Positions 265 to 5,338 of a stretch of DNA of 30,298 nucleotides are shown here, piece by piece. This DNA is from a virus. Lineage: Duplodnaviria; Heunggongvirae; Uroviricota; Caudoviricetes. The notes under the pieces are model-generated. The model searched no databases. It saw only the letters and a list, made by a program, of their open reading frames with translations, and was not told the DNA's origin. Location: IMG/VR virus record IMGVR_UViG_648276648_000002. One strand, given 5' to 3'. The position numbers and the translations under genes are program-made. Position 1 is the stretch's first letter. Each line of letters opens with the position of its first letter.

Positions 265-354
265 TGTTCTCCAATGACTAGTCTAAAAACTAGTATTAAG
301 ACTATCACTTAAATAAGTGATACTGGTTGTCTGGAGATTCAGGGGGCCAGTCTA
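1..354 (-). mobile_element. IS2: IS2 insertion sequence, partial (left inverted-repeat end inside window; rest runs off the 5' edge)
   Basis: Reverse complement of 264-354 matches the recalled IS2 left end (TAGACTGGCCCCCTGAATCTCCAGACAACCA...ACTAGTCATTGGAGAACAG ATG). Element boundary at 354 abuts integrase codon 112. Confidence 0.85.
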
Positions 355-688
355 TATGCATTCTGCTTACAGCAGAGTAAATCTTTGCCTCCGAGATATC
401 TTTAAGCCTTATACCCTCAAAATGTTCAAGCCAGAACTCAATCCGGCTTTTATCTGAATCGAGAGATTTTTTATCAGCTTTTTCCTCAAGCCATCTTAGG
501 CAGGCCTCTTCAAAAGTGACATCAGGTAAATCCCCTAGCTTTTCTACTCGCCAGAGTTCTGCTTTTCGCTTGTCGTGCAACTCCTGAGCTTGCCGCTTGT
601 CCTTTGTGCCAAGAGATTCCTTAATTCGTTTCCCGCCCGGGAGCGAATACGAGGCATACCATATTTCATTTCTGCGGAAGAGTGACAT
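355..688 (-). pseudogene. int: Phage integrase (tyrosine recombinase, Rac IntR-like) N-terminal 111 codons, truncated by the IS2 insertion
   Basis: ORF 305-688 translates [70 protein letters not shown]..., resembling the recalled IntR N-terminus. The frame passes into IS2 sequence after codon 111, so the listed ORF tail ([14 protein letters not shown]) is IS2-derived. Confidence 0.8.
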
Positions 689-915
689 TTTCTTTCCTCT
701 GTTATGCCATCACCCGCGCTCACCTGGACAGTATGCAGCGGAGACTGAAGCGCCGCAATGCAGGCTTGCCGTGTTGTGAGGTAAGGAGATTTTGGCTTGG
801 TTGGATCTTTACGTGTTGCCTGTAGGCGGCCTGTTCGTATCCAGTTGGTGGCGGTTGGTCTGGATATCTTAAGAAACTGACAGGCCTCATCGAGTGTGAG
901 GCTGTATGGCTCCAT
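544..915 (-). CDS. xis: Excisionase-like protein (Rac XisR/YdaQ-like); unusually long C-terminal extension overlapping int
   Basis: Internal Met of ORF 544-999 gives [57 protein letters not shown]..., an HTH excisionase-type N-terminus. ATG overlaps the upstream stop (TAATG). Where the protein really ends is uncertain. Confidence 0.55.
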
Positions 916-1220
916 TATTTCACCTCTTGCTGTGTCATTGTTGAAAAATGGATACCAGCTCGTTGCTGCCAGACGATCCAACCGAGAGTCATATCCCATG
1001 CCATGTATTCGTTATCGCCGTTTTTTGCTCTCCGACGATCTACTAAGTCACCGAAACGCTTTTCCATGAATAATTCATAGGCTTCGCGTTCATCTGGCTC
1101 TACTTCCAGAGATACGAGTGCGATTTCATAAGCACGGCGCTCAATATCGTCTCGAACATCTAGGCTGCTGATTCGTTCTTTGATTTCTTTAATCAGTCCT
1201 TTATTGGTAAATGTGGTCAT
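915..1220 (-). CDS. Early-left operon protein, 101 aa (YfdT-like, CPS-53/KpLE1 type)
   Basis: ORF 915-1220; acidic helical protein; TAATG start/stop coupling with both neighbours; same size and position as recalled K-12 YfdT. Confidence 0.6.
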   Translation of the reverse strand: MTTFTNKGLIKEIKERISSLDVRDDIERRAYEIALVSLEVEPDEREAYELFMEKRFGDLVDRRRAKNGDNEYMAWDMTLGWIVWQQRAGIHFSTMTQQEVK

Positions 1221-3127: not shown

Positions 3128-3490
3128 TTAACGACCTGCTGCGCGGAGTTTTCCGTCAGGCTCACCGGCAAGAGTCAGTAATTGTCCCTGGTCTTCCTGC
3201 AGAATAGTCAGGCGACCACCGCGATTGACATACATCGGCGTTTCGGTGGTGTCTTCTTCGGAAATTTTCCCGCGGTTAGTCGGGCGAACATATGAGAGTT
3301 TGTGTTTGATTTTCACTCGGTTCTCATCAAACGGTTCGATTTCTAGGTTGAGCGAGACCTTACCTTTGGTTTTCGTGTTCATCACACCGGAAGCGACTTC
3401 ACTGAGAACTGCGCCGATTTTGGTTTCAAATACGCCGCCGTCCAGCTCCCCGATAAATGCCTGCACATCAGTACTGCGTTCGCTAGCCAT
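3128..3490 (-). CDS. Early-left operon protein, 120 aa (YfdP-like?); first gene of the leftward operon
   Basis: Internal ATG preceded by GAGGAG (GAGGAGCAGCAAAATG) within ORF 3128-3808; the upstream 106 codons of that ORF look non-coding. Confidence 0.6.
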   Translation of the reverse strand: MASERSTDVQAFIGELDGGVFETKIGAVLSEVASGVMNTKTKGKVSLNLEIEPFDENRVKIKHKLSYVRPTNRGKISEEDTTETPMYVNRGGRLTILQEDQGQLLTLAGEPDGKLRAAGR

Positions 3491-3959
3491 TTTGCTGCTC
3501 CTCATCATATCGACCCTGCAAGGTCGGTTAGTTTCTCCACAAAACAGAGAAGAACACCTGCGGTGACTGCCGCCCGGATGGATTGGGTTATGAGCCCGTC
3601 GTCCGGTGATGCTCTTCTCTGTTTTGTAAAAAGGACGGTACCAGCCGGAAGCAAGGGTACAAGCTGGTACCGCCAGGACTACACACAGCATAAAGTTGTG
3701 GTGCCGGGTGCCTCCCGGTGCCTGGCGAAGGTTGCACACCAGGCGGGTGGGTATCCACAGAAGGTCGACTGTCAGCCTCAACCTTAACCCGCGTGCGCTG
3801 AGCCGCATTCACCACAACGCTAAGGATTCTCTCTGGTTGAAAATACTTAGCTGTTATGTGCCTGCTTTTAGCCACATCAGGCGAGGTGGACCTAGTTATT
3901 CCCCAACAACAAGGATTTGGTTAATCTGGATATCCCCAACAACTAGCTGAGTATTCAAC
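3491..3959. other. GC-rich, hairpin-dense noncoding block; candidate structured RNA or leader/regulatory element
   Basis: No convincing ORF. 15-bp perfect inverted repeat ACAAAACAGAGAAGA (3539-3553) / TCTTCTCTGTTTTGT (3613-3627); a roughly 10-bp stem around GGTACCAGC / GCTGGTACC (about 3636-3671); CCGGG/CCCGG and GCCTGG/CCAGGC stems and GGTGCC repeats near 3697-3745. Confidence 0.4.
3900..3943. repeat. Direct repeat TCCCCAACAAC x2 (33-bp spacing) just upstream of the 3960 ORF; possible regulator-binding sites
   Basis: TCCCCAACAAC at 3900-3910 and 3933-3943, counted back from the ORF start at 3960. Confidence 0.4.
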
Positions 3960-4481
3960 GTGATAGCTGAACTGTCTGCGGCTATGGCCGCTATAAAGGA
4001 GACTGCCGGTCTTGCTAAGGTTATTAATGACGCGAAAACGGATGCAGAAGTTAAAGCTGCAACCATTGAACTCCAGAACAAACTAATCACGCTTCAGGCA
4101 GAATGCTTCTCTCTTGGCGATGCGATCCGCCTTCGTGATGAAGAGGTGATGCATCTCAAAGCAAAAATTGCAGAGTTTGAAGATTTTTGTGCCAAGGTAG
4201 AAGGATATGTCCTTGATCAGCTTGACTCTGGTGCTTTTGTTTACTCTAAAAATGAAATTGTGAGTGGAAAAGAAATAACTGTGCATCTGTGCCCACTTTG
4301 TTATTCCAAAAATATAAAATCGATACTTCATCCGCTTCCAGTAGGTAAAACTTCTCATTTTCTTACAAGCCGTTGCCTTCACTGTGAAAATAAATTTCTT
4401 ATGGAAAAAAATCCGATGTACGAACGACCAAGATCATTACGTGAGTTGGGGCGAGATCTGAATTCGCCTTGGATTCCTTAA
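3960..4481 (+). CDS. Uncharacterized 173-aa protein: N-terminal coiled-coil, C-terminal Cys4 zinc ribbon (CPLC...CLHC); AT-rich accessory gene in the rex-equivalent position
   Basis: Long ORF in AT-rich DNA, convergent with cI and the leftward operon, followed by a rho-independent terminator. GTG start at 3960 (first ATG at 3984); ribosome-binding site weak. Confidence 0.6.
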   Translation: MIAELSAAMAAIKETAGLAKVINDAKTDAEVKAATIELQNKLITLQAECFSLGDAIRLRDEEVMHLKAKIAEFEDFCAKVEGYVLDQLDSGAFVYSKNEIVSGKEITVHLCPLCYSKNIKSILHPLPVGKTSHFLTSRCLHCENKFLMEKNPMYERPRSLRELGRDLNSPWIP

Positions 4482-4523
4482 ATCTTGCATTGGTTGGATG
4501 ATACCCAGATTGTTAAAGAGCTA

Positions 4524-4546
4524 AGCGTCCTGTAGGGCGCTTTTTT
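4524..4546 (+). terminator. Rho-independent terminator downstream of the 3960-4481 ORF
   Basis: Hairpin AGCGTCC-TGTA-GGGCGCT followed by TTTTTT, about 43 nt after the stop codon. Confidence 0.7.
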
Positions 4547-4632
4547 GTTGCTAACGAATCATCCTGGACTTTATATGCCCCAGGCGGCTACTTCGTGGGC
4601 GTCCTGCCTGTTCGTTATCTTTGATATAAAAT

Positions 4633-4682
4633 CTAACTTAACTTAGTTATTATGGCAAGAGAAAACACCAAACTTTTCTTAG
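4633..4682. promoter_or_regulatory. Candidate left operator/promoter region (OL-like) downstream of cI
   Basis: CTAACTTAACTTAG (4633-4646) and CAAACTTTTCTTAG (4669-4682) share the CTAAC-N4-CTTAG pattern seen between cI and cro. Confidence 0.5.
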
Positions 4683-4711: not shown

Positions 4712-5338
4712 TTAGAGTTCGTATTGAACTCCTTTGACTACACCAATGATAAGGCAATTACCATTGATAGGGATGTTGGGATACCGAGGATTTAATGGCA
4801 CTAAAAACTTTTGAGGGCCATCGATGACTAATTTTTTTACTGTAGCTTCGTTTGTTCCATCAAGTCGAGCGATGACTATTTTTCCATGACGAGGTTCTGC
4901 ATCTGGATCTACAATCACTGTTGCGCCTTCTGGTATTGTTGGGAGGCCATTAGGGTTAGTCATGGAGTCACCTTTAACCTCTAATGCAAATGAGTTATCA
5001 CCAACCTTTAATGATGTATCTACCCACTTGTCCACTTCACTAAACACTTCTGCTGCCCTGCACTCAGTAAACTGCCCAGCCTGAACCCACGATATTACAG
5101 GAACTCTGCGCATGTTTGTGACGAGTTTGCCTTCAAACTCAGCACCATAAAGAATGTAATCTATTGACGTATTGAAGAACTTCGCTAATTTCGAAAGTGC
5201 CTCCCCACCAGGGGTATTGATGTCTTTCTCCCAGTACCCCACAGCAACGTCGCTTACTCCACAAAATTTACCCAATTCTTTCTGGGACGTTCTGGTAACT
5301 CTTCTCAGAGCTTTTATACGCTGACCAACCGTTTCCAT
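4712..5338 (-). CDS. cI: CI-type prophage repressor (HTH-XRE N-domain, S24 LexA-like peptidase C-domain)
   Basis: 208 aa; HTH QKELGKFCGVSDVAVGYWE; Ala-Gly self-cleavage site (VQAGQF); GDSM serine motif; divergent from cro. Confidence 0.9.
   Translation of the reverse strand: METVGQRIKALRRVTRTSQKELGKFCGVSDVAVGYWEKDINTPGGEALSKLAKFFNTSIDYILYGAEFEGKLVTNMRRVPVISWVQAGQFTECRAAEVFSEVDKWVDTSLKVGDNSFALEVKGDSMTNPNGLPTIPEGATVIVDPDAEPRHGKIVIARLDGTNEATVKKLVIDGPQKFLVPLNPRYPNIPINGNCLIIGVVKGVQYEL

Follow-up and report, generated by a model that had tools for sequence, protein, structure and literature searches.

Two kinds of phage-borne structured RNA bear on the locus described here. The put RNAs suppress downstream terminators through the zinc-binding domain of the RNA polymerase beta' subunit, and rpoC mutations in this domain, such as Y75N, block them. 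STnc100, in turn, is a small RNA present in multiple prophage copies, 11 of them in EDL933, where it is expressed and one copy has been verified by Northern blotting (PMC5331693). EcOnc27/sRNA103 of Stx and other lambdoid prophages, which overlaps STnc100 just 3' of stx2B, binds Hfq (PMC7873438, PMC12711010, PMC12370729), and PasD (PasD1/PasD2), an abundant small RNA detected by RIL-seq, has been described as a structural homolog of STnc100 (bioRxiv 10.64898/2026.05.13.724894). Here, we analyzed a 30,298-nt stretch of Caudoviricetes DNA (IMG/VR record IMGVR_UViG_648276648_000002; hereafter, the window), focusing on a block at positions 3491-3959 that precedes the early-left gene yfdP. A preliminary description had considered this block to be a put-like antitermination RNA, a small-RNA partner of an adjacent zinc-ribbon gene, or a decayed gene remnant. 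Our comparisons instead identify its center as a divergent member of the STnc100/PasD family. Coordinates are those of the window, and the RNA features are given on its minus strand.

Family assignment and core fold

The covariance-model search proposed in the preliminary description did find a family, although only in a permissive scan. At the Rfam gathering thresholds no match was returned for the whole window, whereas the permissive scan matched STnc100 (RF02076) at 3848-3625 on the minus strand along its full model (1-206), with 42.4 bits and an E-value of 1.7e-7. Sub-threshold STnc100 matches were obtained at the homologous place in SfV (39.5 bits), SfIV (38.4 bits), and ST64B (35.1 bits). 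The DicF, Phe_leader, and snoRNA matches in the permissive scan were rejected as chance. The most conserved 22-mer of the family, CACCGGGAGGCACCCGGCACCA, occurs exactly in the window at 3720-3699, and TGGTGAAT lies 91 nt upstream of it. Scanning one genome per species for this 22-mer yielded 110 stretches across the Enterobacteriaceae, nearly all of which carry TGGTGAAT within the family range of 62-108 nt upstream. The window further displays the helices that characterize STnc100, namely the GUGGUG...CACCAC closing helix, the AAU junction, and the invariant hairpin within the 22-mer; P2, P3, and P4, as well as the pseudoknot, can be drawn at the family positions, and an intrinsic terminator with a 12-13-bp stem and CUUUUU follows on the 3' side (3674-3628). 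Its location departs from that of STnc100, as the window copy is found between cI/PL and yfdP and not in the late region. Judged by homology, the center of the block is thus a divergent STnc100/PasD member in an early-left position.

The core spans 124 nt (3695-3818), is closed by GUUGUGGUG/CACCACAAC, and comprises five helices, four of them internal, together with a pseudoknot. The 9-bp closing helix P1 (3818-3810 with 3703-3695) is followed by the AAU junction (3809-3807) and by P2 (3806-3804 with 3793-3791; GCG/CGC), while P3 (3790-3787 with 3748-3745) closes a variable insert. The P4 hairpin (3744-3739 with 3725-3720) stands directly before the conserved motif, and its loop (3734-3728) forms the 7-bp pseudoknot with 3785-3779 (AAGGUUG with CAACCUU). 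P5 (3718-3714 with 3708-3704) is the invariant CCGGG-AGGCA-CCCGG hairpin. Across the family, P1 is GUGGUG/CACCAC and often longer, P2 is usually CCCC/GGGG and elsewhere CUUUC/GAAAG or CCA/UGG, and the 5-7 nt that follow P3 pair with the P4 loop.

This fold was evaluated on an alignment of 85 sequences (A1) that was non-redundant at 93% identity and built from sequence only. Because the search key comprised P5 and the 3' strand of P1, both are invariant in it by construction, and the counts for the variable part are, if anything, underestimates. For the whole structure, 88.2% of the alignment cells were paired, compared with 39-43% in slid controls; covariation reached 0.348 (0.06-0.08 when slid), cells changed on both sides numbered 365 (90-125 when slid), and none of 500 shuffles attained the observed score. 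The pseudoknot alone was paired in 77.4% of the cells (18-39% when slid), with a covariation of 0.558 against at most 0.175 and, again, 0/500 shuffles as good. G-U pairs are frequent in P4 (35 GU and 29 AU at one pair), a pattern that fits the minus strand only. The core fold, including the pseudoknot, is accordingly supported by covariation across the family; mention of a pseudoknot was not found in the PasD preprint (10.64898/2026.05.13.724894).

A covariance model built from A1 (R1) gave 83.4 bits for the window, a single copy that belongs to the training set, and 78.4 bits for ST64B, which was not used for training and does not contain the exact 22-mer; R1 placed the nested helices of the window as drawn above. 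The alignment across relatives that the preliminary description had named as a check revealed stem-preserving covariation, in the 85 sequences as well as in ST64B. R1 also recognized degenerate copies in the corresponding position of mEp460 (23 bits) and of an Stx2a phage (14.6 bits). In these two loci (L007, mEp460, and L008, Stx2a phage WGPS2, each at 3349-3495), P1, AAU, and P2 are retained and P5 is altered (CCGG-AGAUCAGCA-CCGG), whereas the downstream part, with the terminator, long hairpin, and yfdP, shows about 95% identity to the window.

Flanking modules and the coding question

The core is flanked by additional structured modules. Directly 5' of it lies a 13-bp hairpin, P0 (3819-3851), and on its 3' side a single-stranded linker of 20 nt (UUUAUGCUGUGUGUAGUCCU; 3675-3694) leads to the intrinsic terminator (3628-3674), which consists of a 12-13-bp stem (3674-3662 with 3646-3634), a loop of 15-17 nt, and CUUUUU. 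It is followed by an 89-nt long hairpin (3539-3627) with 25-nt arms, a perfect outer 15 bp, and a branched top, and by a small hairpin (3511-3526) located 8 nt upstream of the yfdP Shine-Dalgarno sequence. In ST64B, a hairpin persists at the position of P0 and retains its base through a compensatory C-G to A-U exchange, P4 displays a C-G to U-A exchange, and the long hairpin carries a G-C to A-U exchange along with several changes that improve pairing. The small hairpin has another sequence in ST64B with the same place and shape, and the terminator stem is unrelated in sequence, yet still forms a hairpin followed by the same CCUUUUUACA. The linker sequence, in turn, is conserved between the window and ST64B, although the adjacent terminator stem has been wholly replaced. 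These comparisons indicate that every module is under structural selection and has been kept by compensatory change in ST64B. The terminator, long hairpin, and yfdP are also common to mEp460, cdtI, and Stx2c phages, even where the core is degenerate.

Folding of each module as minus-strand RNA against dinucleotide shuffles gave -56.6 kcal/mol for the core (3818-3695; z -3.1, with 0/200 shuffles as good), -23.0 kcal/mol for the terminator hairpin (z -4.0), -49.1 kcal/mol for the long hairpin (3627-3539; z -8.6), -10.4 kcal/mol for P0 (3851-3819; z -4.8), and -8.5 kcal/mol for the small hairpin (3526-3511; z -2.5). All of the stems listed in the preliminary description were recovered: the inverted repeat 3539-3563/3603-3627 (25-nt arms, 84% complementary, outer 15 nt perfect), the perfect 10-nt stem around the two GGTACC sites (3636-3645/3663-3672), the CCGGG/CCCGG stem (3704-3708/3714-3718), and the GCCTGG/CCAGGC stem (3720-3725/3739-3744). 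A direct repeat, CCGGGTGCCT/CCCGGTGCCT, is present at 3704-3723. The GC content was described as far above that of the flanking DNA, and it is indeed raised, with a maximum of 0.585 (3601-3800) compared with 0.485-0.49 in yfdP and 0.35-0.42 in the AT-rich neighbors; the claim was nonetheless overstated, as other parts of the window reach 0.56-0.59.

The block carries open reading frames (ORFs) on both strands that overlie the RNA (window 3505-3815, minus; 3696-3950, plus), as do SfIV (gp34/gp35) and the loci L010, L030, L038, and L057. The PGAP annotation of an identical Escherichia coli locus labels 3505-3815 (minus) as a pseudogene ('hypothetical protein, frameshifted'), hypothetical proteins are annotated across the block in several phage records, and a 226-aa ORF continues in frame into yfdP. 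A frameshifted remnant of a protein gene, as the PGAP label implies, is nevertheless hardly credible. Relative to the ST64B homolog (77% identity), the 95 substitutions are split evenly over the codon phases (31/32/32), and none of the five internal indels is a multiple of three, each thereby breaking the frame. The longest ORFs over the block vary in frame and length among homologs, while the helices are preserved through compensatory changes. Moreover, the annotated or naive opposite-strand ORFs are otherwise unrelated and have only WCRVPPG in common, which is the translated reverse complement of the invariant RNA motif. The block is noncoding, as the preliminary description had held in finding no credible ORF; the even spread over phases, the frame-breaking indels, and the stem-preserving covariation lead us to reject its further suggestion of a decayed gene. 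The overlying ORFs are probably annotation artefacts propagated through homology.

Early-left setting and the PL-proximal RNA

The window belongs to a lambdoid prophage of the SfV/SfIV/ST64B kind, and an identical prophage adjoins a tRNA-Arg gene in E. coli LH50-c. The order along the minus strand is cI (4712-5338), OL/PL, a 173-aa ORF on the plus strand, the block (3491-3959), and then yfdP, yfdQ, yfdR, yfdS, yfdT, xis, and int. A promoter scan predicted PL at 4630-4658 on the minus strand (TTGCCA, 17 nt, TAGATT) with overlapping OL operators, and the operator repeats at PL, of type CTAAGTnnnnCTTAGTT, recur in OR. The first conserved early-left gene 3' of the RNA leader is yfdP (3128-3490, minus; named by PGAP in the identical E. 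coli locus; phrog_204), with a GAGGAG Shine-Dalgarno sequence at 3503-3498 and its ATG at 3490-3488. The block was therefore correctly placed between OL/PL and the first early-left gene, within the leftward transcription unit and as a densely structured noncoding segment. The promoter scan revealed no sigma-70-like site on the minus strand between 3850 and 4630, leaving PL as the sole promoter-like site upstream; inspection of 3852-3960 by hand revealed poor hexamers only, and no RNA-specific promoter was placed. The lack of a sigma-70-like promoter directly upstream suggests that the RNA is probably made from PL or by read-through.

Two side observations concern the state of this operon. In the identical E. 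coli locus (L003 2076-3239 and 3771-4133; window 305-999 and 1220-1582), internal stops interrupt the integrase and yfdS, the xis-like gene is truncated, and the prophage is probably defective. In the CPS-53 prophage of E. coli K-12 MG1655 (L242 5248-5604), yfdP-yfdT have been kept and the whole RNA leader has been deleted; about 20 nt before the yfdP start remain, fused to an inverted replication-gene fragment, and K-12 data are therefore unusable for studying this RNA.

The early-left position invites comparison with put, since a nascent RNA that binds RNA polymerase could confer terminator resistance on an operon that lacks N. An N gene is absent from SfII, SfIV, and SfV (PMC3851460), and in agreement with the preliminary description, no arginine-rich ORF that could serve as an N-like first PL gene is present between PL and yfdP (boxA/boxB were not searched for); orf33 of SfV, in the equivalent slot, encodes an acidic product that is not arginine-rich. 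The element is also situated downstream of PL and ahead of the first conserved early gene, and terminator-like hairpins are found along the path from PL to yfdP in SfV and ST64B. Against these points, we compared it with HK022 putL and putR, read from the genome with their numbering checked against the cryo-EM paper (PMC9378689), and with the HK639 'putL-like antiterminator RNA' taken from its GenBank annotation. No likeness in sequence or architecture to these RNAs was detected, and R1 found no match in HK022 or HK639. The core does not begin until about 770 nt past the predicted PL start, and the element ends in its own strong hairpin and U-tract. In SfV and ST64B, the element is located downstream of a terminator-like hairpin and so could not help polymerase to pass it, and most family copies lie 3' of Q, where an RNA antiterminator would be redundant. 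By sequence and architecture the block is not a put family member, put-like action is unlikely, and for a processive antiterminator of the HK022 type we see very little chance.

A better-placed put-like candidate, as a hypothesis, is found at 4617-4552. This PL-proximal RNA of 66 nt (4552-4617, minus) starts about 6 nt after the predicted PL start and consists of a closing stem (4617-4611/4558-4552), an invariant 24-nt block (AGGCAGGACGCCCACGAAGUAGCC), and a hairpin (4584-4580/4567-4563), followed by GAUGA. The closing stem covaries freely (ACGAA/UUCGU, GCGAA/UUCGC, GUCAUC/GAUGAC, CCACC/GGUGG), and the 5-bp hairpin, with its GGCRUAYGAA loop, is represented by at least eight different sequences. 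Among 99 distinct sequences, 88.9% of the cells pair (19-42% in slid controls), covariation is 0.673 (at most 0.15), and 11 of the 12 pairs change on both sides. The RNA is present once in the window, in 51 phage records (Escherichia, Shigella, Salmonella, Klebsiella, Citrobacter, Pantoea, Yersinia, Pectobacterium, Providencia, and Aeromonas), and in more than 120 IMG/VR contigs; the permissive Rfam scan of the window returned no match for it, and a full-text literature search for the PL-leader sequence returned no paper. In 108 of 116 loci, the nearest upstream ORF had the same orientation as the RNA, with a median gap of 147 nt, and the upstream proteins (85 unique) were usually CI-type repressors (50 HTH_3, 30 Peptidase_S24, 15 Phage_CI_repr).

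A covariance model of this second RNA (R2) located it upstream of the STnc100-type RNA in prophages of E. coli, Shigella, Salmonella, Buttiauxella, and Pantoea, and in 26 IMG/VR loci the STnc100 core motif lies 0.5-1.05 kb 3' of it on the same strand. R2 gave no match in HK022 or HK639, their put sequences included, or in mEp460; the PL-proximal RNA has CGAAC and CAGGAUGA alone in common with put, and its position is that of putL. A strict intrinsic-terminator scan, which misses large-loop, weak, and all Rho-dependent terminators, returned hits 3' of it on the sense strand in 9 and on the antisense strand in 29 of 94 non-redundant loci. Sense-strand terminators are thus not in excess, and the antitermination argument for this RNA is not supported. 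One could still envisage that early-left control in the N-less SfV/ST64B-type phages relies on RNA only, with 4617-4552 as a new put-like, polymerase-modifying, or anti-Rho leader and the STnc100-type core as a second checkpoint in cis, a scenario that we regard as doubtful.

On the other side of the block lies the 173-aa ORF (3960-4481, plus), which encodes a coiled-coil and zinc-ribbon protein and has its own terminator (4523-4542). Pfam and PADLOC searches gave no match for it, and PHROGs assigned it to phrog_1244 alone, a family of unknown function. This ORF converges on PL; a transcript from PL therefore has to traverse the terminator of the ORF in reverse, and the entire gene in antisense, on its way to the RNA. 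Two 14-nt direct repeats (TCCCCAACAACAAG/TCCCCAACAACTAG) at 3900-3913 and 3933-3946, located 33 nt apart in the spacer that separates this ORF from the RNA, may represent the promoter or operator of this 173-aa moron. The preliminary description had proposed a small RNA that partners the zinc-ribbon gene, and adjacency, as well as divergence from a shared 110-bp spacer with two direct repeats, could fit an antitoxin, guide, or regulator. The small-RNA half of that proposal is borne out by the STnc100/PasD assignment; the partnership is not, and we consider it extremely improbable. Among the loci examined, the RNA occurs independently of this ORF, with other neighbors or none, in SfV, SfII, SfIV, ST64B, and Buttiauxella; similarity to most relatives stops before the ORF; and phrog_1244 membership, with neither a PADLOC nor a Pfam match, lends the idea no support. 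Other small RNAs occupy the right operon of related phages, where an IsrK and C4-antisense RNA pair stands beside an antirepressor-type gene in SfV, ST64B, mEp460, and the Stx2a phage (L004 6028-6216, L005 5732-5920, L007 823-1011, L008 768-956); the window contains neither IsrK nor C4-antisense RNA.

Proposed function and comparison with known systems

The block was present in 2860 of the 5426 complete E. coli genomes searched, or about half. Most family copies are in the late region, with Q (PF03589), DUF1367, DUF968, and RusA upstream and holins, endolysins, spanins, or morons downstream; the 933W copy lies between stxB and a nanS-p-like gene. Copies of the sub-group with a GCG-type P2, which includes the window copy, are found repeatedly in the early-left region in E. 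coli, Buttiauxella, and Pantoea, where a co-oriented CI-type repressor precedes them and yfdP/yfdQ/yfdR or other genes follow. This order of repressor, RNA, and early-left genes is found in E. coli, Shigella, Salmonella, Buttiauxella, and Pantoea prophages, with differing repressors and downstream genes, and even the degenerate cores of mEp460 and the Stx2a phage keep the early-left slot. A hairpin with a T-tract is present within 200 nt 3' of the core in 85 of 117 copies (about 70%), mostly at 30-110 nt, and canonical members have an A/T-rich -10-like sequence immediately before P1.

Several copies stand in other settings. Phage P7 carries a full core (L240 2402-2533; R1 79.4 bits) in the C1-controlled ban operon, after two tRNA genes, and its terB (tciA) ORF starts 38 nt after the motif with no terminator between them; a near-identical motif is present in P1. 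A 25-nt partial match in N15 (88% identity, E about 2) was not significant and was rejected. In about 20 loci of Kosakonia, Enterobacter, Klebsiella, and Raoultella (including L013, L024, L027, L034, L036, and L041), the core precedes a KdgM-family porin gene by 120-225 nt, often without a terminator, with a 586-aa secreted protein encoded after the porin and a divergent LuxR-type regulator upstream. This porin-leader setting does not appear to be of phage origin, a hint that the fold may also be used for regulation in cis. Tandem STnc100-type cores were observed in L029 (3538/3758), L051, L074, L078, L101, and L111; those of L029 are about 220 nt apart, each with its own terminator.

We slightly favor a function as an Hfq-type small RNA that acts in trans and is released at its own terminator, while the terminator and the hairpins would dampen or process the transcript of yfdP-int. 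The stable 5' domain, conserved linker, and U-tailed terminator of this RNA, together with the Hfq binding of its relatives, make a trans-acting small RNA the most economical reading. The RNA would probably be transcribed when PL fires, i.e. after induction, or through read-through. Termination at this site would yield an RNA of about 225 nt, from 3851 to about 3628, whose stable 5' domain, single-stranded linker, and U-tailed terminator hairpin correspond to the build of an Hfq-dependent small RNA, and which could act in trans on host or phage mRNAs; the linker (3675-3694) would be the likeliest seed if the RNA base-pairs. Polymerases that read through would continue into yfdP-yfdQ-yfdR-xis-int, and the terminator might thus double as an early-left attenuator. 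By analogy with the lambda N leader, RNase III cleavage or translational control might plausibly act at the long duplex ahead of yfdP, and the conserved pseudoknotted core may serve as a stability domain or a protein-binding site.

Several observations weigh against this proposal. The STnc100 score of 42.4 is below the curated gathering threshold of 47 bits, and no promoter for an independent small-RNA gene was found, whereas canonical members have the -10-like box. The experimental support, for a discrete Hfq-associated RNA of about 200 nt, comes entirely from late-region relatives (PMC5331693, PMC7873438) and none of it from the early-left variant. The loop of the predicted terminator is unusually large, and the elaborate invariant core exceeds the needs of a plain base-pairing small RNA. 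Finally, copies that run without a terminator into a gene, as at P7 terB and the kdgM-type porins, look more like a leader acting in cis.

The last two points lead to the main rival, a cis-acting sensor or attenuator resembling a riboswitch, in which the core binds a protein, an ion, or a metabolite and thereby gates the terminator or downstream translation. The core has the look of an aptamer, with invariant junction nucleotides and five helices plus a pseudoknot that are free to covary, and it is combined with variable 3' platforms (a terminator in about 70% of copies, terB in P7, porin genes in about 20 loci). The element is always inside an operon, and the next real 3' gene is co-oriented in the annotated examples, although with a naive ORF call the next ORF lies on the opposite strand in 31 of 105 copies. 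Only one alternative pairing between core and terminator could be drawn in the window (CGCCAGG with CCUGGCG), and ST64B does not retain it; the terminators, 10-60 nt from P1, appear autonomous. Furthermore, relatives accumulate as discrete Hfq-bound RNAs (PMC7873438). Weighing these points, we find control in cis rather unlikely.

Whether it acts in trans or in cis, the block, now labeled as a frameshifted pseudogene or hypothetical protein, should be annotated as an STnc100/PasD structured RNA. The five-helix, pseudoknotted family core with its invariant junctions goes beyond what base-pairing needs and suggests a binding partner. The family further holds a second, early-left niche, in addition to the P1/P7 sites and the chromosomal porin-gene leaders, and N-less lambdoid phages have two conserved RNAs in their early-left leader, which bears on the expression of int, xis, and recombination genes without N. 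The early-left position is new here, as is a fold more complex than reported, with a pseudoknot for which we found no earlier description; the family itself is already catalogued, and the element is largely ordinary.

In comparison with known systems, the window element resembles STnc100/PasD in its GUGGUG/CACCAC closing helix, AAU junction, GCGG-containing P2 loop, invariant CCGGG-AGGCA-CCCGG hairpin, overall length, and 3' intrinsic terminator, as well as in its prophage location inside an operon and on the operon's strand. It differs in a GCG/CGC rather than CCCC/GGGG P2, an extra 5' hairpin, the lack of a -10-like box before P1, and two further conserved hairpins before the next gene; it also heads an early-left operon, whereas the known members are flanked by Q or stx on one side and by the lysis genes on the other. 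With riboswitch-type 5' leaders, the family shares a conserved pseudoknotted multi-helix core and variable downstream platforms, including its place ahead of kdgM-type porin genes and P7 terB; in contrast to riboswitches, it has no established ligand and no conserved switching helix between core and terminator. The long hairpin at 3627-3539 is comparable to the RNase III hairpin of the lambda N leader (and to sib), being a long near-perfect duplex in the PL transcript ahead of the ribosome binding site of the first gene, albeit with no sequence relation and with a terminator preceding it. Finally, HK022 putL/putR and the HK639 RNA are, like the window element, cis-encoded structured RNAs in the early-left transcript of an N-less lambdoid phage. 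The put RNAs, however, are about 70 nt long, with two stems and conserved CGAACGGCGCG...UAAACCAUGCGUCGG...UCAGGAUGA, and start at +1 to +3 of PL, whereas the window element folds into a 124-nt pseudoknot with five helices, lies about 770 nt from PL, and has a terminator of its own; no similarity was detected between them by eye or by covariance model.

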